Position numbers and translations under genes: made by a program | The notes under the pieces: generated by a model | The model's input: only the letters and a program-made list of their open reading frames with translations | The model's database searches: none | Told to the model about the DNA's origin: nothing | NCBI RefSeq assembly: GCF_036365525.1 | Contig: NC_090399.1 | Span: 32,892,430-32,956,429 of the forward strand | Length of the DNA stretch: 64,000 bases | Source of the DNA: Heterodontus francisci | Lineage: Eukaryota | Direction: 5' to 3' | Shown here: positions 1,718-64,000 of the stretch, in pieces | Numbering within the stretch: position 1 is the first letter of the stretch | Layout: each line of letters begins with the position of its first letter

Positions 1718-1990
1718 GGATCCACACATACCAGCTGATGACTGGCTGTGACCTGCGGGACGATGGGACCAGCACTGGATTCAACCAGTATGGCTGGGAT
1801 GGGCAAGACTACCTCAGCTTTGACAAGGATCACATGGTGTGGGTGACACCGGTCCCATGGGGGCAAATCATCCGAAACATATGGAACCAGGACACAGGTG
1901 ACAACCTGCGGTGGAAGAATTACCTGGAGGAGGAGTGTATTGATTGGTTGAGGAAATACCTGCAGTATGGACAGCGAGAATTGAGATTCG
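1718..1990 (+). CDS. MHC class I heavy chain, alpha2-domain exon
   Basis: Acceptor ttgacAG (1716-1717) and donor GTGAGT (1991); 273 bp, phase 1/1. Encodes (G)IHTYQLMTGCDLRDDG...QYGWDGQDYLSFD...W...YLEEECIDWLRKYL, with the class I alpha2 landmarks H93, Q96, G100, C101, D119-G120, W147, Y159, C164, W167 and Y171 (HLA-A2 numbering, aligned by eye). Confidence 0.96.
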
Positions 1991-2495: not shown

Positions 2496-2499
2496 GCCA

Positions 2500-3746: not shown

Positions 3747-3813
3747 TATAATTGAGGACCGGGTCGCTCTATCCTGATCTTCCTGTACTGATTCCTCTTT
3801 CTCTCTCTTTCAG

Positions 3814-4077
3814 TCGCCCCCATAGTGTCCTTTACCCGTCTGGGTGATTCTAACCGGCTGTCCTGTGTCGTCACTGGGTTTTACCCTCAGGCCATCGAGG
3901 TGACTCTGTGGAGAGATGGAGTGATGATCGATGAGACCCTGTCCTCTGGGATCTTGCCCAATCACAACAGAACCTACCAGATCCGGAAATGGATAGAGTT
4001 TGATCCGGAAGACCAGGCTGAGTATTCCTGTCGGGTGGAGCACAGTGGGCTGACGGAGATGATGGTGATGATTTACG
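3814..4077 (+). CDS. MHC class I heavy chain, alpha3 (Ig C1-set) exon
   Basis: Long pyrimidine tract plus CAG (3811-3813) and donor GTAAGA (4078); 264 bp, phase 1/1. Encodes VAPIVSFTRLGDSNRLSCVVTGFYPQAIEVTLW...ILPNHNRTYQIRKW...YSCRVEHSGL, with the C1-set motifs LxC..GFYP and YxCxVxHxxL. Confidence 0.96.
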
Positions 4078-4280
4078 GTAAGACTGTCTCTCACTGTTAG
4101 AGCCTCAGAACAGGAGCACAGGAGGGAGGGTCAGTGCTGTGCAACCAGCCTGGGACAGGCTGAGGCCCAGGATACAGAGTGTTTCCGTCTCAGTGAGACC
4201 GTTAATAGTAAAACACAAGATATGAACTCCCCGGAGCAATTTAAAGAACTGCATGACAAGATTTCACGTTTGAAGGATTC

Positions 4281-7575: not shown

Positions 7576-7622
7576 TTTCTGATAAAGGGGAATCCTCATC
7601 CAGCTCCTCCGCCAATGCCTGA
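7576..7622 (+). CDS. MHC class I cytoplasmic exon 2 with stop codon
   Basis: Acceptor ccattaaCAG (7573-7575). Encodes ISDKGESSSSSSANA then TGA (7620-7622), a Ser-rich class I tail. A donor-like GTATGA follows at 7624, giving a 48-bp exon. Confidence 0.87.
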
Positions 7623-7753: not shown

Positions 7754-8490
7754 TCACTAAAGACCAGCTCATACAATTCAACATGAGCTTTGAGACTGGC
7801 CCTCTGGAGATGAGTGCTCCTGTCTGGTCTGAGGCTGGAGACATCTTGGGGGAGGAGAGGGTAGGGATTTGGGCATCAAGACCCTGGATGTGGACTCCTC
7901 TCAACTGTTCACTTTCCTTAAGCGAATCGAAATAGTCAGAGTTTTCCCTGAATTTGGTCATTGGGGTTTCGAGTTGTTGCTTCCCCAGGATCAGTATTGT
8001 GGTGTTTGGGAAGTGGGACTGATGGGTTTTGCTGGTGTTTGTGGGACTGTGCTGGATCTGCTGTGTTTTCCTTGCTCTGTAACCATTTATTTAATTCTTT
8101 TCCCCAGTGGCCTCCGTGTCTCGGCTGGTATTCCAGAGACTTCAGTTCCCCCGACATTAGCAGGAGAAGTGGATGAGAGTATCAGGCAGTGTGTGATTTC
8201 ATTGCGGTGACAGCAAGTGACTGATCGTGGATCCAGATCTGTGTGGAGTGGGAGTGGGAGGTGGTGTTTAAGTGTCTTGAGTGTGCTGTCTGCTCCCCCA
8301 GACTGTCCCACAGGCTGAGATCAGGAAGGGTTGGCTTATCACTGCGGGATCAGAAAATTTTGCAGTGGGGGAGGGGGAAGAGGAGGAGGAGGAGGTGGTG
8401 GGTTGGGTTGTGCTTTGCAAACTGGGATCTGTTCCTGTAATTTTGTCTTCCCTGTAATTTCCACAATAAATGAGTCCCATTTCCCACTTT
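7754..8490 (+). other. Probable terminal 3'UTR exon of the class I gene
   Basis: Candidate acceptor tgtctgtctctccctgtaTAG (7751-7753) downstream of the donor at 7624. Unique non-repeat sequence runs to AATAAA at 8465-8470. Boundaries are inferred. Confidence 0.5.
8465..8470 (+). terminator. Polyadenylation signal AATAAA
   Basis: Canonical hexamer ~840 bp after the stop codon, followed by pyrimidine/T-rich sequence. Confidence 0.6.
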
Positions 8491-8518
8491 CTGACTCTGT
8501 CCTCAGTTCGTAACTAAT

Positions 8519-8812
8519 TTTTTTTTTATTTGTTCATGGGATGTGGGCATCGCTGGCTGGGACAACTTTTATTACCCATCCCTAATTGCCCTTGAACTGA
8601 TTGGCTTGTTATGCCATTTCAAGGGGCATTTAAGAGACAACCCCATTGCTGTGGCTCTGGAGTCACATGGAGGCCAGACCAGGTAAAGACAGAAGATTTG
8701 CTTCTCTAAAGGACATTAGTGAACCAGATGGGTTTTTACAACAATGGTTTCATGACCGTCGTTAGACTTGTTTTTAATTCCAGATTTTTATTAATTGAAT
8801 TCAACTCCACCT
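8519..8812 (-). mobile_element. Elasmobranch SINE-like interspersed repeat (family not assigned)
   Basis: A poly-T start (poly-A tail on the minus strand) is followed by catgggatgtgggcatcgctggc...aaggacattagtgaaccagatgggttttt, recalled as an abundant shark SINE body. Confidence 0.65.
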
Positions 8813-8947
8813 CCCCAAGCAGTGATTCCTGACTTTGATAACCCACCACGAATCCAGTTGGGTGGGACATTTCCAGTATTTCCATATGGAAGTGAATCAC
8901 CCTGGACAGTTGGATGTGGAAAGGCAATATAAACAAAACGCCCCATT

Positions 8948-9060
8948 TTAAAGTGGGTGCAGGAACAGAGAGACCTGCGGGTGGCTGTACACAAATCTCT
9001 GAAGGTGTCAGGACAAATTGAGAAGGGCTGTTAGAAAAGCATCACACTCCGGGGCTTTAT
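8948..9060 (+). mobile_element. Short degraded CR1 ORF2 fragment
   Basis: Translates LKWVQEQRDLRVAVHKSLKVSGQIEK, matching INVQRDLGVQVHCSLKVATQVNR in the CR1 copy at 4962-5369. Confidence 0.75.
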
Positions 9061-9061
9061 A

Positions 9062-9167
9062 GTGTCAGCCTTGGATCAGTGGTTAACACACTCACTGCTG
9101 AGTTAGAAGGTGGTGGTTTGTAGAGATTCCATTGACTGGAGCACGAAGATCTCGTCTGACAAGGGAG
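9062..9167 (+). mobile_element. tRNA-derived SINE head (Deu-domain/SacSINE1-like), cut off by the satellite
   Basis: gtgtcagccttggatcagtggttaacacactcactgctgagttagaaggtggtggttt...gagcac..atct..gtctgaca has an A-box-like TGGATCAGTGG and a degenerate B-box region. It resembles the 5' end of shark Deu-domain SINEs as recalled. Confidence 0.6.
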
Positions 9168-12100
9168 CGGTGGGAGGGTCAGTGCTGCACGATGTGAGGG
9201 TCAGCGCTGCACGATGTGAGGGTCAGCGCTGCACGATGTGAGGGTCAGCGCTGCACGATGTGAGGGTCAGCGCTGCACGGTGGGAGGGTCAGCGCTGCAC
9301 GGTGGGAGGGTCAGCGCTGCACGGTGGGAGGGTCAGCGCTGCACGGTGGGAGGGTCAGCGCTGCACGGTGGGAGGGTCAGCGCTGCACGGTGGGAGGGTC
9401 AGCGCTGCACGATGTGAGGGTCAGCGCTGCACGGTGGGAGGGTCAGCGCTGCACGGTGGGAGGGTCAGCGCTGCACGGTGGGAGGGTCAGCGCTGCACGG
9501 TGGGAGGGTCAGCGCTGCACGGTGGGAGGGTCAGCGCTGCACGGTGGGAGGGTCAGCGCTGCACGGTGGGAGGGTCAGCGCTGCACGGTGGGAGGGTCAG
9601 CGCTGCACGGTGTGAGGGTCAGCGCTGCACGCTGTGAGGGTCAGCGCTGCACGCTGTGAGGGTCAGCGCTGCACGCTGTGAGGGACAGGGCTGCACGCTG
9701 TGAGGGACAGGGCTGCACGCTGTGAGGGACAGGGCTGCACGCTGTGAGGGACAGGGCTGCACGCTGTGAGGGTCAGGGCTGCACGCTGTGAGGGTCAGGG
9801 CTGCACGCTGTGAGGGTCAGGGCTGCACGCTGTGAGGGTCAGGGCTGCACGGTGGGAGGGTCAGGGCTGCACGGTGGGAGGGTCAGGGCTGCACGATGGG
9901 GGGGGGGTCAGCGCTGCACGATGCGGGGGGGTCAGTGCTGAAAGGTGGGAGGGTCAGTGCTGCACAATGGGGGGGTCAGTGCTGCACGATGTAGGGGTCA
10001 GTGCTGGAAGGTGGGAGGGTCAGTGCTGCACGATGGGGGGGTCAGTGCTGAAAGGTGGGAAGGTCAGTGCTGCACGGCGTGAGGGTCAGCGCTGCACAAT
10101 GTGAGGGTCAGCGCTGCACAATGTGAGGGTCAGCGCTGCAAGGTGGGAGGGTCAGTGCTGCACGATGTGAGGGTCAGTGCTGCACGATGTGAGGGTCAGT
10201 GCTGCAAGGTGGGAGGGTCAGTGCTGCAAGGTGGGAGGGTCAGTGCTGCACGATGTGAGGGTCAGTGCTGCACGATGTGAGGGTCAGTGCTGCACGATGT
10301 GAGGGTCAGTGCTGCACGATGTGAGGGTCAGTGCTGCACGATGTGAGGGTCAGCGCTGCACGATGTGAGGGTCAGCGCTGCACAGTGGGAGGGTCAGCGC
10401 TGCACAGTGGGAGGGTCAGCGCTGCACGCTGTGAGGGTCAGCGCTGCACGCTGTGAGGGTCAGCGCTGCACGATGGGGGGGTCAGGGCTGCACGATGGGG
10501 GGATCAGTGCTGAAAGGTGGGAGGGTCAGTGCTGCACAATGGGGGGGTCAGTGCTGCACGATGTAGGGGTCAGTGCTGGAAGGTGGGAGGGTCAGTGCTG
10601 AAAGGTGGGAGGGTCAGTGCTGCACGATGTGGGGGTCAGTGCTGCACGATGTAGGGGTCAGTGCTGGAAGGTGGGAGGGTCAGTGCTGCACGATGGGGGG
10701 TCAGTGCTGCACGATGGGGGGGTCAGTGCTGCAAGGTGGGTGGGTCAGTGCTGCAAGGTGGGTGGGTCAGTGCTGCAAGGTGGGTGGGTCAGTGCTGCAC
10801 GATGGGGGGTCAGTGCTGCAAGGTGGGTGGGTCAGTGCTGCACGATGGGGGGTCAGTGCTGCACGATGGGGGGGTCACTGCTGCAAGGTGGGTGGGTCAG
10901 TGCTGCAAGGTGGGTGGGTCAGTGCTGCAAGGTGGGTGGGTCAGTGCTGCACGATGGGGGGTCAGTGCTGCAAGGTGGGTGGGTCAGTGCTGCACGATGG
11001 GGGGGTCAGTGCTGCACGATGGAGGGTCAGTGCTGCACGATGGGGGGGTCAGTGCTGCACGATGGGGGGGTCAGTGCTGCACGATGGGGGGGTCAGTGCT
11101 GCACGATGGGGGGGTCAGTGCTGCACGATGGAGGGTCAGTGCTGCACGATGGTGGGGTCAGTGCTGCAAGGTGGGAGGGTCAGTGCTGCACGATGTGAGG
11201 GTCAGCGCTGCACGATGTGAGGGTCAGCGCTGCACGATGTGAGGGTCAGCGCTGCACGATGTGAGGGTCAGCGCTGCACGATGTGAGGGTCAGCGCTGCA
11301 CGATGTGAGGGTCAGCGCTGCACGATGTGGGGATCAGCGCTGCACGATGTGGGGATCAGCGCTGCACGCTGTGAGGGTCAGCGCTGCACGATGGGGGGGT
11401 CAGCGCTGCACGATGGGGGGGTCAGCGCTGCACGGTGGGAGGGTCAGCGCTGCACGATGTGCGGGTCAGCGCTGCACGATGGGGGGGTCAGTGCTGAAAG
11501 GTGGGACGGTCAGTGCTGTACGATGGGGGGGGTCAGTGCTGAAAGGTGGGAGGGTCAGTGCTGCACGATGTGGGGGTCAGTGCTGCACGATGTGGGGGTC
11601 AGTGCTGCACGATGTGGGGGTCAGTGCTGCACGCTGTGAGGGTCAGTGCTGCACGCTGTGAGGGTCAGTGCTGCACGGTGGGGGGGTCAGTGCTGCAAGG
11701 TGGGAGGGTCAGTGCTGCACGATGTGAGGGTCAGTGCTGCACGATGTGAGGGTCAGTGCTGCACGATGGGGGGGTCAGTGCTGAAAGGTGGGAAGGTCAG
11801 TGCTGTACGATGGGGGGGGGGTCAGTGCTGAAAGGTGGGAGGGTCAGTGCTGCACGATGTGGGGGTCAGTGCTGCACGATGGGGGGGGTCAGTGCTGAAA
11901 GGTGGGAGGGTCAGTGCTGCACAATGGGGGGGTCAGTGCTGCACGATGTAGGGGTCAGTGCTGGAAGGTGGGAGGGTCAGTGCTGCACGATGGTGGGGTC
12001 AGTGTTGAAAGGTGGGAGGGTCAGTGCTGCACAATGGGGGGGTCAGTGCTGCACGATGTAGGGGTCAGTGCTGGAAGGTGGGAGGGTCAGTGCTGCACAA

Positions 12101-15100
12101 TGGGAGGGTCAGTGCTGCACAATGGGAGGGTCAGTGCTGCACAATGGGAGGGTCAGTGCTGCACAATGGGGGGGTCAGTGCTGCACAATGGGGGGGTCAG
12201 TGCTGCACGATGTAGGGGTCAGTGCTGGAAGGTGGGAGGGTCAGTGCTGGAAGGTGGGAGGGTCAGTGCTGCAAGATGGGAGGGTCAGGGCTGCAAGATG
12301 GGAGGGTCAGGGCTGCAAGATGGGAGGGTCAGGGCTGCAAGATGGGAGGGTCAGGGCTGCAAGATGGGAGGGTCAGGGCTGCAAGATGGGAGGGTCAGGG
12401 CTGCACGATGGGGGGGTCAGGGCTGCACGATGGGGGGGTCAGTGCTGCACGATGGGGGGGTCAGTGCTGAAAGATGGGAGGGTCAGTGCTGCACGGTGGG
12501 GGGGTCAGAGCTGAAAGGTGGGAGGGTCAGCGCTGCACAGTGGGAGGGTCAGCGCTGCACAGTGGGAGGGTCAGCGCTGCACAGTGGGAGGGTCAGCGCT
12601 GCACAGTGGGAGGGTCAGCGCTGCACAGTGGGAGGGTCAGCGCTGCACAGTGGGAGGGTCAGCGCTGCACAGTGGGAGGGTCAGCGCTGCACGATGGGGG
12701 GGTCAGCGCTGCACGATGGCGGGGTCAGTGCTGCACGATGGCGGGGTCAGTGCTGCAAGGTGGGAGGGTCAGTGCTGCAAGGTGGGAGGGTCAGTGCTGC
12801 AAGGTGGGAGGGTCAGTGCTGCAAGGTGGGAGGGTCAGTGCTGCAAGGTGGGAGGGTCAGTGCTGCAAGGTGGGAGGGTCAGTGCTGCACGATGTGAGGG
12901 TCAGTGCTGCACGATGTGAGGGTCAGTGCTGCACGATGTGAGGGTCAGAGCTGCACGATGTGAGGGTCAGTGCTGCAAGGTGGGAGGGTCAGTGCTGCAA
13001 GGTGGGAGGGTCAGTGCTGCACGATGTGAGGGTCAGCGCTGCACGGCGTGAGGGTCAGCGCTGCACGGCGTGAGGGTCAGCGCTGCACGGCGTGAGGGTC
13101 AGCGCTGCACGGCGTGAGGGTCAGCGCTGCACGGCGTGAGGGTCAGCGCTGCACGGCGTGAGGGTAAGCGCTGCACGGCGTGAGGGTCAGCGCTGCACGG
13201 CGGGAGGGTCAGCGCTGCACTGTGGGAGGGTCAGCGCTGCACGCTGTGAGGGTCAGGGCTGCACGCTGTGAGGGTCAGGGCTGCACGCTGTGAGGGTCAG
13301 GGCTGCACGGTGGGAGGGTCAGCGCTGCACGATGGGGGGGGTCAGCGCTGCACGATGGGGGGGTCAGTGCTGCACGGTGGGGGGATCAGTGCTGAAAGGT
13401 GGGAGGGTCAGTGCTGCACAATGGGGGGGTCAGTGCTGCACGATGTAGGGGTCAGTGCTGGAAGGTGGGAGGGTCAGTGCTGCACGATGGGGGGGTCAGT
13501 GCTGAAAGGTGGGAAGGTCAGTGCTGCACGGCGTGAGGGTCAGCGTTGCACAATGTGAGGGTCAGCGCTGCACAATGTGAGGGTCAGTGCTGCAAGGTGG
13601 GAGGGTCAGTGCTGCACGATGTGAGGGTCAGTGCTGCACGATGTGAGGGTCAGTGCTGCACGATGTGAGGGTCAGTGCTGCAAGGTGGGAGGGTCAGTGC
13701 TGCACGATGTGAGGGTCAGCGCTGCACGGCGTGAGGGTCAGCGCTGCACGGCGGGAGGGTCAGCGCTGCACGGCGGGAGGGTCAGCGCTGCACGGCGGGA
13801 GGGTCAGCGCTGCACGGCGGGAGGGTCAGCGCTGCACGGCGGGAGGGTCAGCGCTGAACGGCGGGAGGGTCAGCGCTGCACGCTGTGAGGGTCAGCGCTG
13901 CACGCTGTGAGGGTCAGCGCTGCACGATGGGGGGATCAGTGCTGAAAGGTGGGAGGGTCAGTGCTGCACAATGGGGGGGTCAGTGCTGCACGATGTAGGG
14001 GTCAGTGCTGGAAGGTGGGAGGGTCAGTGCTGCACGATGTGGGGGTCAGTGCTGCACGATGTAGGGGTCAGTGCTGCACGATGTAGGGGTCAGTGCTGGA
14101 AGGTGGGAGGGTCAGTGCTGCACGATGGGGGGGTCAGTGCTGCAAGGTGGGTGGGTCAGTGCTGCAAGGTGGGTGGGTCAGTGCTGCACGATGGGGGGTC
14201 AGTGCTGCAAGGTGGGTGGGTCAGTGCTGCACGATGGGGGGGTCAGTGCTGCACGATGGAGGGTCAGTGCTGCACGATGGGGGGGTCAGTGCTGCACGAT
14301 GGGGGGGTCAGTGCTGCACGATGGGGGGGTCAGTGCTGCACGATGGGGGGGTCAGTGCTGCACGATGGAGGGTCAGTGCTGCACGATGGTGGGGTCAGTG
14401 CTGCAAGGTGGGAGGGTCAGTGCTGCACGATGTGAGGGACAGCGCTGCACGATGTGAGGGACAGCGCTGCACGATGTGAGGGTCAGCGCTGCACGATGTG
14501 AGGGTCAGCGCTGCACGATGTGAGGGTCAGCGCTGCACGATGTGAGGGTCAGCGCTGCACGATGTGGGGATCAGCGCTGCACGCTGTGAGGGTCAGCGCT
14601 GCACGATGGGGGGGGTCAGCGCTGCACGGTGGGAGGGTCAGCGCTGCACGATGTGAGGGTCAGTGCTGCACGATGGGGGGGTCAGTGCTGAAAGGTGGGA
14701 AGGTCAGTGCTGTACGATGGGGGGGGGTCAGTGCTGAAAGGTGGGAGGGTCAGTGCTGCACGATGTGGGGGTCAGTGCTGCACGCTGTGAGGGTCAGTGC
14801 TGCACGGTGGGGGGATCAGTGCTGAAAGGTGGGAGGGTCAGTGCTGCACAATGGGGGGGTCAGTGCTGCACGATGTAGGGGTCAGTGCTGGAAGGTGGGA
14901 GGGTCAGTGCTGCACGATGGTGGGGTCAGTGCTGAAAGGTGGGAGGGTCAGTGCTGCACAATGGGGGGGTCAGTGCTGCACGATGTAGGGGTCAGTGCTG
15001 GAAGGTGGGAGGGTCAGTGCTGCACAATGGGAGGGTCAGTGCTGCACAATGGGGGGGTCAGTGCTGCACGATGTAGGGGTCAGTGCTGGAAGGTGGGAGG

Positions 15101-18100
15101 GTCAGTGCTGGAAGGTGGGAGGGTCAGTGCTGGAAGGTGGGAGGGTCAGTGCTGCACGATGTGGGGGTCAGTGCTGCACGATGTGGGGGTCAGTGCTGCA
15201 CGCTGTGAGGGTCAGTGCTGCACGCTGTGAGGGTCAGTGCTGCACGGTGGGGGGGTCAGTGCTGCAAGGTGGGAGGGTCAGTGCTGCACGATGTGAGGGT
15301 CAGTGCTGCACGATGTGAGGGTCAGTGCTGCACGATGGGGGGGTCAGTGCTGAAAGGTGGGAAGGTCAGTGCTGTACGATGGGGGGGGTCAGTGCTGAAA
15401 GGTGGGAGGGTCAGTGCTGCACGATGTGGGGGTCAGTGCTGCACGATGGGGGGGTCAGTGCTGCACGATGGGGGGATCAGTGCTGAAAGGTGGGAGGGTC
15501 AGTGCTGCACAATGGGGGGGTCAGTGCTGCACGATGTAGGGGTCAGTGCTGGAAGGTGGGAGGGTCAGTGCTGCACGATGGTGGGGTCAGTGCTGAAAGG
15601 TGGGAGGGTCAGTGCTGCACAATGGGGGGGTCAGTGCTGCACAATGGGGGGGTCAGTGCTGCACGATGTAGGGGTCAGTGCTGGAAGGTGGGAGGGTCAG
15701 TGCTGCACAATGGGAGGGTCAGTGCTGCACAATGGGAGGGTCAGTGCTGCACAATGGGGGGGTCAGTGCTGCACAATGGGGGGGGTCAGTGCTGCACGAT
15801 GTAGGGGTCAGTGCTGGAAGGTGGGAGGGTCAGTGCTGGAAGGTGGGAGGGTCAGTGCTGGAAGGTGGGAGGGTCAGTGCTGCAAGATGGGAGGGTCAGG
15901 GCTGCAAGATGGGAGGGTCAGGGCTGCAAGATGGGAGGGTCAGGGCTGCACGATGGGGGGGTCAGGGCTGCACGATGGGGGGGTCAGTGCTGCACGATGG
16001 GGGGGTCAGTGCTGAAAGATGGGAGGGTCAGTGCTGCACGGTGGGGGGGTCAGAGCTGAAAGGTGGGAGGGTCAGCGCTGCACAGTGGGAGGGTCAGCGC
16101 TGCACAGTGGGAGGGTCAGCGCTGCACAGTGGGAGGGTCAGCGCTGCACGATGGGGGGGTCAGTGCTGCACGATGGCGGGGTCAGTGCTGCACGATGGCG
16201 GGGTCAGTGCTGCAAGGTGGGAGGGTCAGTGCTGCAAGGTGGGAGGGTCAGTGCTGCAAGGTGGGAGGGTCAGTGCTGCACGATGTGAGGGTCAGTGCTG
16301 CACGATGTGAGGGTCAGAGCTGCACGATGTGAGGGTCAGAGCTGCACGATGTGAGGGTCAGTGCTGCAAGGTGGGAGGGTCAGTGCTGCACGATGTGAGG
16401 GTCAGCGCTGCACGGCGTGAGGGTCAGCGCTGCACGGCGTGAGGGTCAGCGCTGCACGGCGTGAGGGTCAGCGCTGCACGGCGTGAGGGTCAGCGCTGCA
16501 CGGCGTGAGGGTAAGCGCTGCACGGCGTGAGGGTCAGCGCTGCACAGCGGGATGGTCAGCGCTGCACTGTGGGAGGGTCAGCGCTGCACTGTGGGAGGGT
16601 CAGCGCTGCACGCTGTGAGGGTCAGGGCTGCACGCTGTGAGGGTCAGGGCTGCACGCTGTGAGGGTCAGGGCTGCACGGTGGGAGGGTCAGCGCTGCACG
16701 ATGGGGGGGGGTCAGCGCTGCACGATGGGGGGGTCAGCGCTGCACGATGGGGGGATCAGTGCTGAAAGGTGGGAGGGTCAGTGCTGCACAATGGGGGGGT
16801 CAGTGCTGCACGATGTAGGGGTCAGTGCTGGAAGGTGGGAGGGTCAGTGCTGCACGATGTAGGGGTCAGTGCTGGAAGGTGGGAGGGTCAGTGCTGCACG
16901 ATGGGGGGGTCAGTGCTGAAAGGTGGGAAGGTCAGTGCTGCACGGCGTGAGGGTCAGCGTTGCACATTGTGAGGGTCAGCGCTGCACAATGTGAGGGTCA
17001 GTGCTGCAAGGTGGGAGGGTCAGTGCTGCACGATGTGAGGGTCAGTGCTGCACGATGTGAGGGTCAGTGCTGCTCGATGTGAGGGTCAGTGCTGCAAGGT
17101 GGGAGGGTCAGTGCTGCAAGGTGGGAGGGTCAGTGCTGCACGGCGTGAGGGTCAGCGCTGCACGGCGTGAGGGTCAGCGCTGCACGGCGTGAGGGTCAGC
17201 GCTGCACGGCGGGAGGGTCAGCGCTGCACGGCGGGAGGGTCAGCGCTGAACGGCGGGAGGGTCAGCGCTGCACGCTGTGAGGGTCAGCGCTGCACGCTGT
17301 GAGGGTCAGCGCTGCACGCTGTGAGGATCAGCGCTGCACGCTGTGGGGGTCAGGGCTGCACGATGGGGGGGTCCGGGCTGCACGATGGGGGGATCAGTGC
17401 TGAAAGGTGGGAGGGTCAGTGCTGCACAATGGGGGGGTCAGTGCTGCACGATGTAGGGGTCAGTGCTGGAAGGTGGGAGGGTCAGTGCTGCACGATGTGG
17501 GGGTCAGTGCTGCACGATGTGGGGGTCAGTGCTGCACGATGTAGGGGTCAGTGCTGCACGATGTAGGGGTCAGTGCTGGAAGGTGGGAGGGTCAGTGCTG
17601 CACGATGGGGGGGTCAGTGCTGCAAGGTGGGTGGGTCAGTGCTGCAAGGTGGGTGGGTCAGTGCTGCACGATGGGGGGTCAGTGCTGCAAGGTGGGTGGG
17701 TCAGTGCTGCACGATGGGGGGGTCAGTGCTGCACGATGGAGGGTCAGTGCTGCACGATGGGGGGGTCAGTGCTGCACGATGGGGGGGTCAGTGCTGCACG
17801 ATGGGGGGGTCAGTGCTGCACGATGGGGGGGTCAGTGCTGCACGATGGAGGGTCAGTGCTGCACGATGGAGGGTCAGTGCTGCACGATGGAGGGTCAGTG
17901 CTGCACGATGGTGGGGTCAGTGCTGCAAGGTGGGAGGGTCAGTGCTGCACGATGTGAGGGACAGCGCTGCACGATGTGAGGGACAGCGCTGCACGATGTG
18001 AGGGTCAGCGCTGCACGATGGGGGGGGTCAGCGCTGCACGATGGGGGGGGTCAGCGCTGCACGGTGGGAGGGTCAGCGCTGCACGGTGGGAGGGTCAGCG

Positions 18101-21100
18101 CTGCACGATGTGAGGGTCAGTGCTGCACGATGGGGGGGTCAGTGCTGAAAGGTGGGAAGGTCAGTGCTGTACGATGGGGGGGGGTCAGTGCTGAAAGGTG
18201 GGAGGGTCAGTGCTGCACGATGTGGGGGTCAGTGCTGCACGCTGTGAGGGTCAGTGCTGCACGGTGGGGGGATCAGTGCTGAAAGGTGGGAGGGTCAGTG
18301 CTGCACAATGGGGGGGTCAGTGCTGCACGATGTAGGGGTCAGTGCTGGAAGGTGGGAGGGTCAGTGCTGCACGATGGTGCGGTCAGTGCTGAAAGGTGGG
18401 AGGGTCAGTGCTGCACAATGGGGGGGTCAGTGCTGCACGATGTAGGGGTCAGTGCTGGAAGGTGGGAGGGTCAGTGCTGCACAATGGGAGGGTCAGTGCT
18501 GCACAATGGGGGGGTCAGTGCTGCACGATGTAGGGGTCAGTGCTGGAAGGTGGGAGGGTCAGTGCTGGAAGGTGGGAGGGTCAGTGCTGGAAGGTGGGAG
18601 GGTCAGTGCTGCAAGATGGGAGGGTCAGTGCTGCAAGATGGGAGGGTCAGTGCTGCAAGATGGGAGGGTCAGGGCTGCACGATGGGGGGGTCAGTGCTGC
18701 ACGATGGGGGGGTCAGTGCTGAAAGATGGGAGGGTCAGGGCTGCACGATGGGGGGGTCAGTGCTGCACGGTGGGGGGATCAGAGCTGAAAGGTGGGAGGG
18801 TCAGCGCTGCACAGTGGGAGGGTCAGCGCTGCACGGTGGGGGGGTCAGTGCTGAAAGGTGGGAGGGTCAGTGCTGCACGATGGGGGGGTCAGTGCTGAAA
18901 GGTGGGAGGGTCTGGGATGCACGATGGGGGGGGTCAGTGCTGAAAGGTGGGTGGGTCAGTGCTGCACGATGTGGGGGTCAGTGCTGCACGATGTGGGGGT
19001 CAGTGCTGCACGATGTGGGGGTCAGTGCTGCAAGGTGGGAGGGTCAGTGCTGCACGATGGGGGGGTCAGTGCTGCACGATGGGGGGGTCAGTGCTGCACG
19101 ATGTGAGGGTCAGTGCTGCACGATGTGAGGGTCAGTGCTGCAAGGTGGGAGGGTCAGTGCTGCAAGGTGGGAGGGTCAGTGCTGCAAGGTGGGAGGGTCA
19201 GTGCTGCACGATGGGGGGATCAGTGCTGAAAGGTGGGAGGGTCAGTGCTGCACAATGGGGGGGTCAGTGCTGCACGATGTGGGGGTCAGTGCTGGAAGGT
19301 GGGAGGGTCAGTGCTGCACGATGGGGGGGGTCAGTGCTGAAAGGTGGGAAGGTCAGTGCTGCACGGCGTGAGGGTCAGCGCTGCACAATGTGAGGGTCAG
19401 TGCTGCACGATGTGAGGGTCAGTGCTGCACGATGTGAGGGTCAGTGCTGCACGATGTGAGGGTCAGTGCTGCACGATGTGAGGGTCAGTGCTGCAAGGTG
19501 GGAGGGTCAGTGCTGCACGGTGGGAGGGTCAGTGCTGCACGATGTGAGGGTCAGTGCTGCACGATGTGAGGGTCAGTGCTGCACGATGTGAGGGTCAGTG
19601 CTGCACGACGTGAGGGTCAGCGCTGCACGGCGTGAGGGTCAGCGCTGCACGGCGTGAGGGTCAGCGCTGCACGGCGGGAGGGTCAGCGCTGCACGGCGGG
19701 AGGGTCAGCGCTGCACGGCGGGAGGGTCAGCGCTGCACGCTGTGAGGGTCAGCGCTGCACGCTGTGAGGGTCAGCGCTGCACGATGGGGGGGTCAGGGCT
19801 GCACGATGGGGGGATCAGTGCTGAAAGGTGGGAGGGTCAGTGCTGCACAATGGGGGGGTCAGTGCTGCACGATGTAGGGGTCAGTGCTGGAAGGTGGGAG
19901 GGTCAGTGCTGAAAGGTGGGAGGGTCAGTGCTGCACGATGTGGGGGTCAGTGCTGCACGATGTAGGGGTCAGTGCTGGAAGGTGGGAGGGTCAGTGCTGC
20001 ACGATGGGGGGTCAGTGCTGCACGATGGGGGGGTCAGTGCTGCAAGGTGGGTGGGTCAGTGCTGCAAGGTGGGTGGGTCAGTGCTGCACGATGGGGGGTC
20101 AGTGCTGCAAGGTGGGTGGGTCAGTGCTGCAAGGTGGGTGGGTCAGTGCTGCACGATGGGGGGGGTCAGTGCTGCACGATGGGGGGGTCAGTGCTGCACG
20201 ATGGGGGGGTCAGTGCTGCACGATGGGGGGGTCAGTGCTGCACGATGGAGGGTCAGTGCTGCACGATGGAGGGTCAGTGCTGCACGATGGAGGGTCAGTG
20301 CTGCACGATGGTGGGGTCAGTGCTGCAAGGTGGGAGGGTCAGTGCTGCACGATGGGGGGGTCAGTGCTGCACGATGGGGGGGTCAGTGCTGCACGATGGG
20401 GGGGTCAGTGCTGCACGATGGGGGGGTCAGTGCTGCACGATGGAGGGGTCAGTGCTGCACGATGGAGGGGTCAGTGCTGCACGATGGAGGGTCAGTGCTG
20501 CACGATGGAGGGTCAGTGCTGCACAATGGTGGGGTCAGTGCTGCAAGGTGGGAGGGTCAGCGCTGCACGATGTGAGGGTCAGCGCTGCACGATGTGAGGG
20601 TCAGCGCTGCACGATGTGAGGGTCAGCGCTGCACGATGTGAGGGTCAGCGCTGCACGATGGGGGGGTCAGTGCTGAAAGGTGGGAAGGTCAGTGCTGTAC
20701 GATGGGGGGGGGTCAGTGCTGAAAGGTGGGAGGGTCAGTGCTGCACGTTGTGGGGGTCAGTGCTGCACGCTGTGAGGGTCAGTGCTGCACGATGGGGGGG
20801 TCAGTGCTGCAAGGTGTGAGGGTCAGTGCTGCACGATGTGAGGGTCAGTGCTGCACGATGGGGGGGTCAGTGCTGAAAGGTGGGAAGGTCAGTGCTGTAC
20901 GATGGGGGGGGGTCAGTGCTGAAAGGTGGGAGGGTCAGTGCTGCACGATGTGGGGGTCAGTGCTGCACGATGGGGGGGTCAGTGCTGCACGACGGGGGGA
21001 TCAGTGCTGAAAGGTGGGAGGGTCAGTGCTGCACAATGGGGGGGTCAGTGCTGGAAGGTGGGAGGGTCAGTGCTGCACGATGGTGGGGTCAGTGCTGAAA

Positions 21101-24100
21101 GGTGGGAGGGTCAGTGCTGCACAATGGGGGGGTCAGTGCTGCACGATGTAGGGGTCAGTGCTGGAAGGTGGGAGGGTCAGTGCTGCACAATGGGAGGGTC
21201 AGTGCTGCACAATGGGAGGGTCAGTGCTGCACAATGGGAGGGTCAGTGCTGCACAATGGGAGGGTCAGTGCTGCACAATGGGGGGGTCAGTGCTGCACGA
21301 TGTAGGGGTCAGTGCTGCACGATGTAGGGGTCAGTGCTGGAAGGTGGGAGGGTCAGTGCTGGAAGGTGGGAGGGTCAGTGCTGCAAGATGGGAGGGTCAG
21401 GGCTGCACGATGGGGGGGTCAGTGCTGCACGATGGGGGGGTCAGTGCTGAAAGATGGGAGGGTCAGGGCTGCACGATGGGAGGGTCAGGGCTGCACGATG
21501 GGAGGGTCAGGGCTGCACGATGGGAGGGTCAGGGCTGCACGATGGGGGGGGTCAGTGCTGCACGGTGGGGGGGTCAGAGCTGAAAGGTGGGAGGGTCAGC
21601 GCTGCACAGTGGGAGGGTCAGCGCTGCACGGTGGGGGGGTCAGTGCTGAAAGGTGGGAGGGTCAGTGCTGCACGATGGGGGGGTCAGTGCTGAAAGATGG
21701 GAGGGTCAGGGCTGCACGATGTGGGGGTCAGTGCTGCACGATGTGGGGGTCAGTGCTGCACGATGTGGGGGTCAGTGCTGCACGGTGGGGGAGTCAGAGC
21801 TGAAAGGTGGGAGGGTCAGTGCTGAAAGGTCTGAGGGTCAGTGCTGCACGATGGAGGGTCAGTGCTGCACGATGGTGGGGTCAGTGCTGCAAGGTGGGAG
21901 GGTCAGTGCTGCACGATGTGAGGGACAGCGCTGCACGATGTGAGGGACAGCGCTGCACGATGTGAGGGTCAGCGCTGCACGATGTGAGGGTCAGCGCTGC
22001 ACGATGGGGGGGGTCAGCGCTGCACGGTGGGAGGGTCAGCGCTGCACGATGTGAGGGTCAGTGCTGCACGATGGGGGGGTCAGTGCTGAAAGGTGGGAAG
22101 GTCAGTGCTGTACGATGGGGGGGGGGTCAGTGCTGAAAGGTGGGAGGGTCAGTGCTGCACGATGTGGGGGTCAGTGCTGCACGCTGTGAGGGTCAGTGCT
22201 GCACGGTGGGGGGATCAGTGCTGAAAGGTGGGAGGGTCAGTGCTGCACAATGGGGGGGTCAGTGCTGCACGATGTAGGGGTCAGTGCTGGAAGGTGGGAG
22301 GGTCAGTGCTGCACGATGGTGCGGTCAGTGCTGAAAGGTGGGAGGGTCAGTGCTGCACAATGGGGGGGTCAGTGCTGCACGATGTAGGGGTCAGTGCTGG
22401 AAGGTGGGAGGGTCAGTGCTGCACAATGGGAGGGTCAGTGCTGCACAATGGGGGGGTCAGTGCTGCACGATGTAGGGGTCAGTGCTGGAAGGTGGGAGGG
22501 TCAGTGCTGGAAGGTGGGAGGGTCAGTGCTGGAAGGTGGGAGGGTCAGTGCTGCAAGATGGGAGGGTCAGTGCTGCAAGATGGGAGGGTCAGTGCTGCAA
22601 GATGGGAGGGTCAGTGCTGCAAGATGGGAGGGTCAGGGCTGCACGATGGGGGGGTCAGTGCTGCACGATGTGGGGGTCAGGGCTGAAAGATGGGAGGGTC
22701 AGGGCTGAAAGATGGGAGGGTCAGGGCTGCACGATGGGGGGGTCAGGGCTGCACGATGGGGGGGTCAGTGCTGCACGGTGGGGGGATCAGAGCTGAAAGG
22801 TGGGAGGGTCAGCGCTGCACAGTGGGAGGGTCAGCGCTGCACGGTGGGGGGGTCAGTGCTGAAAGGTGGGAGGGTCAGTGCTGCACGATGGGGGGGTCAG
22901 TGCTGAAAGGTGGGAGGGTCTGGGATGCACGATGGGGGGGGTCAGTGCTGAAAGGTGGGTGGGTCAGTGCTGCACGATGTGGGGGTCAGTGCTGCACGAT
23001 GTGGGGGTCAGTGCTGCACGATGTGGGGGTCAGTGCTGCAAGGTGGGAGGGTCAGTGCTGCACGATGGGGGGGTCAGTGCTGCACGATGGGGGGGTCAGT
23101 GCTGCACGATGTGAGGGTCAGTGCTGCACGATGTGAGGGTCAGTGCTGCACGATGTGAGGGTCAGTGCTGCAAGGTGGGAGGGTCAGTGCTGCAAGGTGG
23201 GAGGGTCAGTGCTGCAAGGTGGGAGGGTCAGTGCTGCACGATGGGGGGATCAGTGCTGAAAGGTGGGAGGGTCAGTGCTGCACAATGGGGGGGTCAGTGC
23301 TGCACGATGTGGGGGTCAGTGCTGGAAGGTGGGAGGGTCAGTGCTGCACGATGGGGGGGGTCAGTGATGAAAGGTGGGAAGGTCAGTGCTGCACGGCGTG
23401 AGGGTCAGCGCTGCACAATGTGAGGGTCAGTGCTGCACGATGTGAGGGTCAGTGCTGCACGATGTGAGGGTCAGTGCTGCAAGGTGGGAGGGTCAGTGCT
23501 GCACGATGTGAGGGTCAGTGCTGCACGATGTGAGGGTCAGTGCTGCACGATGTGAGGGTCAGTGCTGCACGATGTGAGGGTCAGTGCTGCACGATGTGAG
23601 GGTCAGCGCTGCACGGCGGGAGGGTCAGCGCTGCACGGCGGGAGGGTCAGCGCTGCACGGCGGGAGGGTCAGCGCTGCACGCTGTGAGGGTCAGCGCTGC
23701 ACGCTGTGAGGGTCAGCGCTGCACGATGGGGGGGTCAGGGCTGCACGATGGGGGGATCAGTGCTGAAAGGTGGGAGGGTCAGTGCTGCACAATGGGGGGG
23801 TCAGTGCTGCACGATGTAGGGGTCAGTGCTGGAAGGTGGGAGGGTCAGTGCTGAAAGGTGGGAGGGTCAGTGCTGCACGATGTGGGGGTCAGTGCTGCAC
23901 GATGTAGGGATCAGTGCTGGAAGGTGGGAGGGTCAGTGCTGCACGATGGGGGGTCAGTGCTGCACGATGGGGGGGTCAGTGCTGCAAGGTGGGTGGGTCA
24001 GTGCTGCAAGGTGGGTGGGTCAGTGCTGCACGATGGGGGGTCAGTGCTGCAAGGTGGGTGGGTCAGTGCTGCAAGGTGGGTGGGTCAGTGCTGCACGATG

Positions 24101-27100
24101 GGGGGGTCAGTGCTGCACGATGGGGGGGTCAGTGCTGCACGATGGGGGGGTCAGTGCTGCACGATGGAGGGTCAGTGCTGCACGATGGAGGGTCAGTGCT
24201 GCACGATGGTGGGGTCAGTGCTGCAAGGTGGGAGGGTCAGTGCTGCACGATGGGGGGGTCAGTGCTGCACGATGGGGGGGTCAGTGCTGCACGATGGGGG
24301 GGTCAGTGCTGCACGATGGAGGGGTCAGTGCTGCACGATGGAGGGGTCAGTGCTGCACGATGGAGGGTCAGTGCTGCACGATGGAGGGTCAGTGCTGCAC
24401 GATGGAGGGTCAGTGCTGCACAATGGTGGGGTCAGTGCTGCAAGGTGGGAGGGTCAGTGCTGCACGATGTGAGGGTCAGCGCTGCACGATGTGAGGGTCA
24501 GCGCTGCACGATGTGAGGGTCAGCGCTGCACGATGTGAGGGTCAGCGCTGCACGATGGGGGGGTCAGTGCTGAAAGGTGGGAAGGTCAGTGCTGTACGAT
24601 GGGGGGGGGTCAGTGCTGAAAGGTGGGAGGGTCAGTGCTGCACGTTGTGGGGGTCAGTGCTGCACGCTGTGAGGGTCAGTGCTGCACGATGGGGGGGTCA
24701 GTGCTGCAAGGTGTGAGGGTCAGTGCTGCACGATGTGAGGGTCAGTGCTGCACGATGGGGGGGTCAGTGCTGAAAGGTGGGAAGGTCAGTGCTGTACGAT
24801 GGGGGGGGGTCAGTGCTGAAAGGTGGGAGGGTCAGTGCTGCACGATGTGGGGGTCAGTGCTGCACGATGGGGGGGTCAGTGCTGCACGACGGGGGGATCA
24901 GTGCTGAAAGGTGGGAGGGTCAGTGCTGCACAATGGGGGGGTCAGTGCTGCACGATGTAGGGGTCAGTGCTGGAAGGTGGGAGGGTCAGTGCTGCACGAT
25001 GGTGGGGTCAGTGCTGAAAGGTGGGAGGGTCAGTGCTGCACAATGGGGGGGTCAGTGCTGCACGATGTAGGGGTCAGTGCTGCACGATGTAGGGGTCAGT
25101 GCTGGAAGGTGGGAGGGTCAGTGCTGCACAATGGGAGGGTCAGTGCTGCACAATGGGAGGGTCAGTGCTGCACAATGGGAGGGTCAGTGCTGCACAATGG
25201 GGGGGTCAGTGCTGCACAATGGGGGGGTCAGTGCTGCACGATGTAGGGGTCAGTGCTGCACGATGTAGGGGTCAGTGCTGGAAGGTGGGAGGGTCAGTGC
25301 TGGAAGGTGGGAGGGTCAGTGCTGCAAGATGGGAGGGTCAGGGCTGCACGATGGGGGGGTCAGTGCTGCACGATGGGGGGGTCAGTGCTGAAAGATGGGA
25401 GGGTCAGGGCTGCACGATGGGAGGGTCAGGGCTGCACGATGGGAGGGTCAGGGCTGCACGATGGGGGGGTCAGTGCTGCACGGTGGGGGGGTCAGTGCTG
25501 AAAGGTGGGAGGGTCAGTGCTGCACGATGGGGGGGTCAGTGCTGAAAGATGGGAGGGTCAGGGCTGCACGATGTGGGGGTCAGTGCTGCACGATGTGGGG
25601 GTCAGTGCTGCACGATGTGGGGGTCAGTGCTGCACGGTGGGGGAGTCAGAGCTGAAAGGTGGGAGGGTCAGTGCTGAAAGGTCTGAGGGTCAGTGCTGCA
25701 CGATGTGAGGGTCAGTGCTGCACGATGTGAGGGTCAGAGCTGCACGGTGGGGGGGGTGTGCTGCACGGTGGGGGGGGGTGTGCTGCACGGTGGGGGGGTC
25801 AGAGCTGAAAGGTGGGCGGGTCAGAGCTGAAAGGTGGGCGGGTCAGCGCTGCACGGTGGGGGGGTCCGCGCTGCACGGTGGGGGGGTCAGTGCTGAAAGG
25901 TGGGAGGGTCAGTGCTGCACGATGGGGGGGGTCAGTGCTGAAAGGTGGGAGGGTCAGGGCTGCACGATGTGAGGGTCAGTGCTGCACGGTGGGGGGGTCA
26001 GAGCTGAAAGGTGGGAGGGTCAGAGCTGAAAGGTGGGAGGGTCAGAGCTGAAAGGTGGGAGGGTCAGTGCTGCACGGTGTGAGGGTCAGTGCTGCACGGT
26101 GTGAGGGTCAGAGCTGCACGGTGTGAGGGTCAGTGCTGCACGGTGGGGGGGTCAGAGCTGAAAGGTGGGAGGGTCAGAGCTGAAAGGTGGGAGGGTCAGT
26201 GCTGCACGATGTGAGGGTCAGTGCTGCACGATGTGAGGGTCAGCGCTGCACGGTGGGGGGGGGGTGTGCTGCACGGTGGGGGGGTCAGTGCTGCACGGTG
26301 GGGGGGTCAGAGCTGAAAGGTGGGAGGGTCAGAGCTGAAAGGTGGGAGGGTCAGTGCTGCACGATGTGAGGGTCAGTGCTGCACGATGTGAGGGTCAGCG
26401 CTGCACGGTGGGGGGGGGGTGTGCTGCACGGTGGGGGGGTCAGTGCTGCACGGTGGGGGGGTCAGAGCTGAATGGTGGGAGGGTCAGCGCTGCACGGTGG
26501 GAGGGTCAGCGCTGCACGGTGGGGGGGTCAGTGCTGCACGATGGGGGTGTCAGTACTGAAAGGTGGGAAGGTCAGTGCTGCACGATGGGAGGGTCAGAGC
26601 TGCACGGTGGGGGGGTCAGTGCTGAAAGGTGGGAGGGTCAGTGCTGCACGATGGGGGGGTCAGTGCTGAAAGGTGGGAGGGTCAGGGCTGCACGATGGGG
26701 GGGGGTCAGTGCTGAAAGGTGGGTGGGTCAGTGCTGCACGATGTGGGGGTCAGTGCTGCACGATGGGGGGGTCAGTGCTGCACGATGGGAGGGTCAGAGC
26801 TGCACGATGTGAGGGTCAGAGCTGCACGATGTGAGGGTCAGTGCTGCACGGTGGGGGAGTCAGAGCTGAAAGGTGGGAGGGTCAGTGCTGAAAGGTCTGA
26901 GGGTCAGTGCTGCACGATGTGAGGGTCAGCGCTGCACGGTGGGGGGGTCAGCGCTGCACGGTGGGGGGGTCAGCGCTGCACGGTGGGGGGGTCAGAGCTG
27001 AAAGGTGGGCGGGTCAGAGCTGAAAGGTGGGCGGGTCAGCGCTGCACGGTGGGGGGGTCAGCGCTGCACGGTGGGGGGGGTCAGTGCTGAAAGGTGGGAG

Positions 27101-30100
27101 GGTCAGGGCTGCACGATGGGGGGGTCAGTGCTGAAAGGTGGGTGGGTCAGTGCTGCACGATGTGGGGGGGTCAGAGCTGAAAGGTGGGCGGGTCAGAGCT
27201 GAAAGGTGGGCGGGTCAGCGCTGCACGGTGGGGGGGTCAGTGCTGCACGGTGGGGGGGGTCAGTGCTGAAAGGTGGGAGGGTCAGGGCTGCACGATGGGG
27301 GGGTCAGTGCTGAAAGGTGGGTGGGTCAGTGCTGCACGATGTGGGGGTCAGTGCTGCACGATGGGGGGGTCAGAGCTGCACGGTGTGAGGGTCAGAGCTG
27401 CACGGTGTGAGGGTCAGAGCTGCACGGTGTGAGGGTCAGTGCTGCACGGTGGGGGCTGAGAGCTGAAAGGTGGGAGGGTGAGAGCTGAAAGGTGGGAGGG
27501 TCAGAGCTGAAAGGTGGGAGGGTCAGTGCTGCACGATGTGAGGGTCAGCGCTGCACGGTGGGGGGGGGGTGTGCTGCACGGTGGGGGGGTCAGAGCTGAA
27601 AGGTGGGAGGGTCAGCGCTGCACAGTGGGAGGGTCAGTGCTGCACGATGGGGGTGTCAGTACTGAAAGGTGGGAAGGTCAGTGCTGCACGATGGGGGGGG
27701 GTCAGTGCTGCACGATGGGGGTGTCAGTGCTGAAAGGTGGGAAGGTCAGTGCTGAAAGGTGGGAGGGTCAGTGCTGAAAGGTGGGAGGGTCAGTGCTGCA
27801 CGATGGGGAGGGTCAGTGCTGCACGATGGGGAGGGTCAGTGCTGCACGATGGGGAGGGTCAGTGCTGCACGATGGGGAGGGTCAGTGCTGCACGATGGGG
27901 AGGGTCAGTGCTGCACGATGGGGAGGGTCAGTGCTGCACGATGGGGGGGGGTCAGTGCTGCACAATGGGGGGGGTCAGAGCTGCACAATGGTGGGGTCAG
28001 TGCTGCAAGGTGGGAGGGACAGTACTGCACGATGGGGGGGTCAGTGCTGCACAATGGGGGGGGTCAGTGCTGCACGATGGGGGGGCTCAGTGCTGAAAGG
28101 TGGGAAGGTCAGCGCTGCACAGTGGGAGGGACAGCACTGCACGATGTGAGGGACAGCACTGCACGATGTGAGGGTCAGTGCTGCACGATGTGAGGGTCAG
28201 TGCTGCACGATGGGGGGGGTCAGTGCTGCAAGGTGGAAGAGTCAGTGCTGCACGATGTGGGGGGTCAGTGCTGCACGATGGGGGGTCAGTGCTGCACGAT
28301 GGGGGGTCAGTGCTGCACGATGGGGGTGTCAGTGCTGCACGATGGGGGTGTCAGTGCTGCAAGGTGGGTGGGTCAGTGCTGCACGATGGGGGGTCAGTGC
28401 TGCACGGTGGGTGGGTCAGTGCTGCACGATGGGGGGGGTCAGTGCTGCACGATGGGGGGGTCAGTGCTGCACGATGGGGGGGTCAGTGCTGCACGATGGG
28501 GGGGTCAGTGCTGCACGATGGGAGGGACAGCGCTGCACGATGTGAGGGTCAGCGCTGCACGATGTGAGGGTCAGCGCTGCACGATGTGAGGGTCAGCGCT
28601 GCACGATGTGAGGGTCAGCGCTGCACGATGTGAGGGTCAGCGCTGCACGATGTGGGGATCAGCGCTGCACGATGGGGGGTGTCAGTGCTGAAAGGTGGGA
28701 AGGTCAGTGCTGCACGATGGGGGGGGGGTCAGTGCTGAAAGGTGGGAGGGTCAGCACTGCACAGTGGGAGGGACAGCGCTGCACGCTTTGAGGGTCAGTG
28801 CTGCACGATGGGGGGGGTCAGTGCTGCAAGGTGGGAGGGTCAGTGCTGCACGATGTGGGGGTCAGTGCTGCACGGTGGGGGGGTCAGTCCTGAAAGGTGG
28901 GAAGGTCAGTGCTGCACGATGGTGGGGTCAGTGCTGCACGATGTTGGGGTCAGTGCTGAAAGGTGTGAGGGTCAGTGCTGCACGATGGTGGGGTCAGTGC
29001 TGCACAATGGGGGGGTCAGTCCTGAAAGGTGGGAGGGTCAGCACTGCACGATGTGAGGGTCAGTGCTGCACAATGGAGGGTCAGTGCTGCATGATGTGGG
29101 GGGTCAGTGCTGCAAGGTGGGATGGTCAGTACTGCACGATGGGGGGGTCAGTGCTGCACGATGGAGGGTCAGTGCTGCACGATGTGAGGGACAGCGCTGC
29201 ACGATGTGAGGGACAGCGCTGCACGATGTGAGGGACAGCGCTGCACGATGTGAGGGACAGCGCTGCACGATGTGAGGGACAGCGCTGCACGATGTGAGGG
29301 ACAGCGCTGCACGATGTGAGGGTCAGTGCTGCAAGGTGGAAGGGTCAGTACTGCACGATGTCGGAGTCAGTGCTGCAAGGTGGGAGGGTCAGTGCTGCAC
29401 AGTGGGAGGGACAGCGCTGCACGATGGAGGGTCAGTGCTGCACGATGTGAGGGACAGTACTGCACGATGTGAGGGACAGCGCTGCACGATGTGAGGGACA
29501 GCGCTGCACGATGTGAGGGACAGCGCTGCACGATGTGAGGGTCAGTGCTGCAAGGTGGAAGGGTCAGTGCTGCACGATGGGGGGGGTGTCAGTGCTGAAA
29601 GGTGGGAGGGTCAGTGCTGCACGATGGGGGGGGGTCAGCGCTGCTCTGTGGGAGGGTCAGCGCTGCTCTGTGGGAGGGACAGCACTGCACGATGGGAGGG
29701 TCAGTGCTGCACGATGGGAGGGTCAGTGATGCAAGGTGGGAGGGTCAGTACTGCACGATGGGGGGGTCAGTGCTGCAAGGTGGAAGGGTCAGTGCTGCAC
29801 GCTGTCAGGGTCAGTGCTGCACGATGGGGGGGTCAGTGCTGAAAGGTGGGAGGGTCAGTGCTGCACGATGGTGGGGTCAGTGCTGCACGATGGTGGGGTC
29901 AGTGCTGCACGATGGTGGGAGGGTCAGTGCTGCACGATGGGGGGGACAGTGCTGCAAGGTGGAAGGGTCAGTGCTGCAAGGTGGAAGGGTCAGTGCTGCA
30001 CGATGGTGGGGTCAGTGCTGCACGATGGTGGGAGGGTCAGTGCTGCACGATGGGGGGGACAGTGCTGCAAGGTGGAAGGGTCAGTGCTGAAAGGTGGGAA

Positions 30101-63100: not shown

Positions 63101-64000
63101 CAGTGCTGCACAATGGAGGGTCAGTGCTGCACGATGGGGGGGTCAGTGCTGTAAGGTGGGAGGGTCAGTGCTGCACGATGTGGGGGTCAGTGCTGTAAGG
63201 TGGGAGGGTCAGTGCTGCACGATGGGGGGGTCAGTCCTGCAAGGTGGGAGGGTCAGTCCTGCAAGGTGGGAGGGTCAGTGCTGCACGATGGGGGGGTCAG
63301 TGCTGCACGATGGGTGGGTCAGTGCTGAAAGGTGGGAGGGTCAGCACTGCACGATGGGGGGGTCAGTGCTGCAAGGTGGGAGGGTCAGTGCTGCACGATG
63401 GAGGGTCAGTGCTGCACAATGGGGGTGTCAGAGCTGCACGATGTGAGGGTCAGCGCTGCACGATGGGGGGGGTCTGTGCTGCAAGGTCGGAGGGTCAGTG
63501 CTGCACGATGGTGGGGTCAGTGCTGCAAGGTGGGAGGGTCAGTGCTGCACGATGGTGGGGTCAGTGCTGCACGATGTTGGGGTCAGTGCTGCAAGGTGGG
63601 AGGGTCAGTGCTGCACGATGGGGGGCTCAGTGCTGCAAGGTGGGAGGGTCAGTGCTGCAAGGTGGGAGGGTCAGTGCTGCAAGGTGGGAGGGTCAGTGCT
63701 GCACGATGTTGGGGTCAGTGCTGCACGATGTTGGGGTCAGTGCTGCAAGGTGGGAGGGTCAGTGCTGCACGATGTTGGGGTCAGTGCTGCAAGGTGGGAG
63801 GGTCAGTGCTGCACGAAGGGGGGTTCAGTGCTGAAAGGTGGGAGGGTCAGCGCTGCACTGTGGGAGGGACAGCACTGCACGATGTGAGGGTCAGTGCTGC
63901 ACAATGGAGGGTCAGTGCTTCACGATGTGAGGGTCAGTGCTGCACGATGGGGGGGTCAGTGCTGCACGATGGGGGGTCAGTGCTGCACGATGGGGGGTCA
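9168..64000 (+). repeat. 22-bp G-rich satellite array, >54.8 kb, running off the window end
   Basis: Continuous head-to-tail units GGGTCAG(T/C)GCTG(CAC/CAA/AAA)G(A/G)TG(T/G)G(A/G), e.g. gagggtcagtgctgcacgatgt and gagggtcagtgctgcaaggtgg. Roughly 2,500 units in one orientation, with no interruption seen. Confidence 0.99.

Follow-up and report, generated by a model that had tools for sequence, protein, structure and literature searches.

Where does a giant satellite array come from, and can the place of its birth still be recognised? The question is raised by the window (the whole 64,000-nucleotide stretch of DNA analysed here), in which a tandem array of 22-bp units runs to the last letter and is preceded by what the first-pass annotation took for the head of a tRNA-like SINE. 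We find that the array most probably does begin in a decayed tRNA-type SINE, behind an MHC class I gene, and that it likely arose in place, a 33-bp unit having formed there before losing 11 bases and multiplying. We give this reading a probability of roughly three in four.

The class I gene lies upstream of the array, on the same strand, and is followed by a LINE fragment:

1718..1990, + strand: alpha-2 exon of an MHC class I heavy chain (Pfam MHC_I, E 5.1e-25; best PDB match 6lup_A, E 1.2e-32; boundaries by eye)
3812..4078, + strand: MHC class I alpha-3 exon (Pfam C1-set, E 4.4e-16)
about 6255-6361, + strand: transmembrane exon of the class I gene (translation and splice context; by eye)
about 7240-7271, + strand: short cytoplasmic exon of the class I gene (translation and splice context; by eye)
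7576..7622, + strand: likely last coding exon of the class I gene, stop at 7620-7622 (translation and splice context; by eye)
8465..8470, + strand: AATAAA, candidate poly(A) signal of the class I gene, the sole AATAAA/ATTAAA in 7200-9200 and about 0.6 kb before the SINE head
8925..9061, + strand: decayed LINE reverse-transcriptase fragment, which we take to be of the CR1 type, ending where the SINE head begins (translation)

For the class I exon, 6lup is the best PDB match by 24 bits, and we take it to be a shark protein. At two positions of the gene (1718-7622) where 6lup has T and K, presumably its peptide C-terminus anchors T143 and K146, the translation reads I and I, which suggests a non-classical class I molecule as far as a translated sequence can tell. 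The introns hold G-rich minisatellites at 2140-2462 and 6509-7130 (27-35 bp and 36 bp, respectively), the 36-bp one scoring high in G4Hunter (mean 1.43). The intron that follows the alpha-3 exon also contains a lone copy, 18 of 19 letters, of the junction between two units of the array (4121-4139, + strand; blastn against 1-9050, E 0.001). The word thus exists outside the array, and this copy is either a stray minisatellite relic or a converted patch. Two further stretches, 8520-8810 and 55-250, look like what we presume to be common shark LINE/SINE 3' ends.

Downstream of the LINE fragment, which the SINE head appears to cut at 9061, the window can be divided as follows:

9062..9135, + strand: decayed tRNA-type head of an interspersed repeat (SINE), its B box at about 9116-9125 destroyed (dispersed records, box scan, B-box word in tRNA T-arms)
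9136..9161, + strand: linker after the head, tracking the family continuation to about 9144 and gapless with the sister record described below (by-eye alignment)
9162..9179, + strand: shortened half-unit keeping AGGGAG, the spacer word of the 33-bp unit, at 9162-9167; the first full unit starts at 9180
9171..64000, + strand: G-rich 22-bp tandem array of at least 2,486 units, containing identical neighbours in runs and duplicated blocks of 2.1-4.0 kb, and still continuing where the window stops
9260..9600, + strand: junction-proximal units nearest to the sister's 33-bp unit (enriched in CGGTGGGAG)

Sequencing records from four of the 24 listed runs were aligned to 9040-9214 at 80% likeness (X1, 123 records; X5, 3; X21, 11; X10, 29), other runs with a share below 0.2 being left out. 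In all four, dispersed records covered 9058-9118, with a sharp rise in depth there, and the same alternative letters over the head were common to as many as 31 contigs of X1 and as many as 19 of X10. The listed pieces begin at 9056-9072, while their loose ends upstream agree at just 0.48-0.70 where several records were pooled; a common start with disagreeing upstream flanks marks the 5' boundary of a family of interspersed copies. From the window copy the family departs at 9111-9116, where it goes on with a word starting GTTCAAGTCC (10 of 11 X21 reads, agreement 0.81), and this B-box word was found inside a same-strand ARAGORN tRNA in 19 of the 29 prokaryotic loci fetched with it. By eye, window positions 9117-9144 track the family continuation at 18 of 28 letters with one 2-nt gap.

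The box scan found an A box at 9072-9082 with one mismatch, most family copies having the matching letter at 9075. At 9116-9125, where a B box would be expected, it found none within two mismatches; by eye, five of the first nine letters there differ from the family's word, the conserved C included. ARAGORN and Rfam returned no match in the head itself, and the head folds no better than its shuffles (z +0.37). The family thus has what defines a tRNA-derived SINE, namely interspersed copies with a common 5' end and unrelated 5' flanks together with A and B boxes, and the claim that a tRNA-like SINE head precedes the array is borne out. The window copy itself lacks the intact B box of an active Pol III template, and the head at 9062 reads, from its letters, as that of a tRNA-type SINE, decayed and with its B box dead.

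TRF reports period 22, 2486.5 copies and 84% matches for 9171-64000 on the + strand. It is still repeating at position 64000 and so is open there; the giant 22-bp array is real, but of the ">55-kb satellite" that had been announced, only a length of at least 54,830 bp is demonstrable within the window. Splitting yielded 2,482 units, which fall into 314 variants. A length of 22 nt is shared by 2,087 of these units; G-run expansions and splitting artefacts account for the longer ones, of which none measures 33 nt. The composition is about 64% GC with a strong G skew on the + strand, units start in the T-type in 77% of cases and in the C-type in 15%, and the word AGYGC comes back with a spacing of 22 nt 1,497 times. 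As had been said of the parts first read, the array contains no TTTT, on either the + or the - strand, the only TTT on the + strand lying at 28787; a 22-mer without a T run cannot, by construction, contain one. The box scan found no exact B box in it. Frames free of stops reach 566 codons, as repeated units predict. We regard the array as satellite DNA that most likely neither codes for protein nor has its own promoter.

What links head and array is a second version of the locus, hereafter the sister, seen in X1 record 1 (439 nt; 17 differences and 0 gaps against window 9040-9182) and X5 record 17 (953 nt; 16 differences and 0 gaps over the same span), two records that come from one sample. 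Identity to the window is 88-89% over 9040-9182, flank included, and six of the 16 X5 differences have no given position, 9152-9182 being a possible place for them. At 9075, 9086, 9090 and 9097 the X5 record agrees with the window against most of the family, and since these window-specific letters are kept and the flank aligns, the sister carries the same SINE insertion. No difference is listed for it at 9117-9124, which argues that the loss of the B box predates the split between the two versions. Directly past 9182, 11 additional letters stand in the X5 record, which then, by eye, matches a window unit at 17 of 19 letters (chance 2e-7, or at most 8e-4 after allowing for 12 offsets and 314 variants). 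The sister therefore has a 33-nt unit exactly where the window's 22-mers start, judging from one unit and from 30 of the 65 loose letters of X5. Both records stop 65 letters past 9182, as records running into a repeat should do. The sister could represent a paralog, allele or ortholog; organism A contains only 0.37 of the words.

The first-pass annotation had derived the 22-mer from a 33-bp unit by removal of 11 bp, and the sister, with a unit 11 nt longer at the same position, provides just such a unit. Its two AGYGC words lie 11 bases apart, and its 11 extra letters include AGGGAG, which is present at 9162 in the window and occurs 0 times in the array, where no unit retains the 11-nt spacer; the chance of AGGGAG sitting in the half-unit is about 0.006. 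The units next to the junction resemble the sister most closely. Of the first 24, 22 have the C-type start, and the sister-like word CGGTGGGAG is found in 14 of them, against 38 of the other 2,458 units (0-8% in later bins), although these 14 form one homogenised run and are not independent. With the half-unit gapless against the sister and the first units closest to its unit, an origin in place, as first proposed, is favoured. The three array variants that had been offered as relics of the longer unit do exist (52, 12 and 120 copies) but turned out to be substitution variants of the 22-mer; the first two appear for the first time at 26,551 and 13,214, far from the junction, and we set them aside as evidence. 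The preferred reading is tempered by the sister coming from a single sample, by the homogenised state of the CGGTGGGAG run and by the rise of this word again at 60-64 kb.

Could the junction be an arrival rather than a birthplace? In such a scenario the 22-mer would have been born at another SINE-derived 33-bp array and copied here by ectopic recombination or gene conversion. The lone copy at 4121-4139 and the small number of array-like contigs seen in organism D, at depths of up to 30, would sit well with it, but it has to account for the locus-specific letters that the first units share with the sister's 33-bp unit and for a half-unit that is gapless in both, and we consider it rather unlikely. 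A SINE fragment and an unrelated satellite might also adjoin by chance or through an assembly join, given that among the listed records none crosses the window's own junction and that 9124-9165 is covered solely by the 88% sister record. Considering that directly past 9182 the sister carries on with the motif and stays in phase (the chance of at most 8e-4 given above), and that the spacer word stands at 9162, a fortuitous join seems very unlikely. Least probable of all to us is that the change ran the other way, with an older 22-mer and 11 bases gained by the sister: two states without an outgroup would permit it, but the window's half-unit keeps AGGGAG, otherwise found only in the 11-nt spacer, and a 33-mer presumably resides inside shark SINEs, so that we regard a gain as close to negligible.

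A different kind of alternative concerns not the origin of the array but its activity, the head being a live Pol III promoter that would drive terminator-free transcripts through it, as the first-pass annotation had held possible. The A box with its single mismatch and the lack of TTTT over 54.8 kb would be compatible with this. On the other hand, the B box at 9116-9125 is destroyed, with the same damage in the sister, the array offers no exact B box as a substitute, and the freedom from TTTT follows from the make-up of the 22-mer. Moreover, the sister contig in X5, a run that may be RNA, reaches about 745 nt upstream of 9040 and marks no start at 9062, which fits a longer molecule, or DNA, rather than initiation there, although contigs show neither starts nor strand. 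We therefore judge a promoter still active at this copy, as read from its sequence, to be highly improbable.

Returning to an origin in place, the array's internal structure indicates how it may have grown. Neighbouring units are identical in 371 of 2,481 cases (15%, against 2.7% expected), and 150-mers recurring more than 500 bp away cover 51% of the array, mostly at offsets of 2.1-4.0 kb; identical neighbours together with repeated blocks of this size fit slippage plus unequal exchange. The stretch of first units folds better than shuffles on both strands (z -2.4 and -3.5), while a later stretch does not (z -1.2), and the self-complementary core of the first units may have aided growth. G-quadruplex potential is modest (2 canonical motifs, G4Hunter mean 0.93), and with no window (0%) of the first 500 bp scoring 1.2 or more we found quadruplexes a weak candidate for the driver of growth. 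In the last part of the window, 60000-64000, the long repeated blocks are missing and the junction-type word CGGTGGGAG is back in 14 of 179 units; this part may be a new sub-domain or the approach to the array's other end.

The amount of array-type DNA differs between samples. Array-type contigs have a summed depth near 2,000 in run X1, against 5.6 for the sister record, summed depth not being the same as copy number and X1 possibly being the source sample. In run X10, from another species (organism D), array-like contigs are few, with depth up to 30, and in X21, raw reads of a capture library from another individual of organism A, 11 reads fall on the head and 0 on the array units (9171-9214). 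This contrast gives only a hint of lineage or individual specificity; it may reflect presence/absence variation or library bias.

Taken together, we propose the following history. The SINE would have landed in the CR1 fragment downstream of an ancestral class I gene and have lost its B box to decay. A 33-bp piece of the SINE body may then have turned into a tandem unit. This piece we assume to be the SINE's own body (SacSINE1/Deu); the 22-mer is linked to the sister's 33-bp unit by sequence, and that unit presumably to the SINE body, the family copies being readable to about 9146, short of the 33-mer. The locus would next have split into the two versions that are now 11-12% apart, and in the window lineage 11 bases were probably lost by slippage between the two AGYGC words, as their arrangement suggests; a break sliding along the AGYGC microhomology yields both the C-type and the T-type unit starts. 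Local slippage and unequal exchange of 2-4-kb blocks would finally have enlarged the array.

This history can be taken further, to a scenario that we regard as unlikely when taken as a whole. The window's 22-mer satellite would have been born after the class I lineage split and on some haplotypes only, while an expressed sister kept the 33-bp state; a heterochromatic block of more than 55 kb, 0.7 kb behind the poly(A) signal, would silence or rearrange an immune gene; and the Deu SINE body of sharks would act as a satellite factory over several generations. If true, the two versions would let the birth of a satellite inside the MHC be compared before and after, as in a natural experiment. The class I neighbourhood would be of consequence only if the array had an effect on expression or copy number.

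The origins of satellites are usually erased. Here the end of the SINE can be set beside a half-deleted intermediate, a sister whose unit is longer and the array in its expanded form, and with these stages in line the origin of a monomer by microhomology deletion becomes datable and testable. It would also extend SINE-derived satellites from reptiles to a shark-type genome. Satellites of this kind with a preserved SINE end have already been published for reptiles, to go by the portions of that work available to us; what is new here is the shortened, second-generation unit and the class I neighbourhood.

Among known elements, the head resembles SacSINE1 and other DeuSINEs in being of the tRNA type, in its high copy number and in its presumably shark-type host (PMC5499810 and PMC2746220, both available as partial texts). 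According to the same part of PMC5499810, the Deu homology of SacSINE1 starts at consensus position 124, which, counted from 9062, falls approximately at the array start, a likeness by position only. Unlike those elements, the window copy has a dead B box, and the window contains no Deu domain or L2-type tail. The word 'tandem' is absent from the PMC5499810 text accessible to us, and the SacSINE1 consensus does not occur in the accessible parts of the supplements of PMC5804259, PMC4824008 and PMC11481361. PMC10620051, in the portion available, describes simple tandem repeats as more abundant on short shark chromosomes and names no SINE source there. We found no paper on such a repeat in sharks, most subscription journals being outside the search.

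Scans of contigs for SINE copies or further arrays of this kind gave 13, 19, 1 and 0 loci in viral sets, 2 in metagenomes and 29 in genomes, none with shark-type DNA, and the plasmid scan gave one 30-nt chance match only. In blastn of the head against 63 of the 64 collected loci, the matches listed were all of 11-22 letters, and four loci inspected as candidate relatives (L009, L014, L015 and L064) proved unrelated. One of these, the metagenome contig end L014:1440-1955, consists of an unrelated repeat of about 57 bp in tandem, with a 19-letter match to the unit inside it that we treated as chance.

In its unit, the array is reminiscent of the Alu- and B1-derived minisatellites described in the part of PMC6947457 seen by us, where an origin by slippage between direct repeats of 5-10 bp is discussed (Jurka and Gentles 2006, Bois 1998, and Haber and Louis 1998 are cited there). 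Both have a short G-rich unit, in the window presumably also from inside a SINE, and point to microhomology-mediated slippage. The Alu and B1 minisatellites of that text are short, up to about 100 units, whereas the window array is of satellite length and contains multi-kb block duplications.

The closest parallel is with the SINE-derived satellites sSat1-3, surveyed across 56 squamate genomes by Vassetzky, Kosushkin and Ryskov (2023; PMC10702118, here as a partial text). Most sSat loci in that text keep a longer terminal unit that reaches a SINE end, their arrays attain nearly 950 and over 1,200 units, and long loci can be dominated by shortened forms of the unit, as in the gecko sSat3Gja1a. 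The window array likewise has at least four middle monomers and, on its 5' side, a terminal unit keeping the SINE to its end (9062-9179). Part of the original claim of a preserved birth junction thus stands, in that the SINE end is kept on the 5' side; in the light of the sSat terminal units described there, such preservation is to be expected and makes this locus an instance of the published rule rather than an exception to it. The differences lie in the monomer and the setting. In the sections available, sSat units are about 70-290 nt long, come directly from Squam1-3 and are mostly subtelomeric, while the window array has at least 2,486 units of 22 nt, shows an apparent internal deletion of a 33-mer and lies beside a class I gene. 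Having no 70-290-nt unit derived from Squam1-3, the array works like an sSat but stands outside those families.
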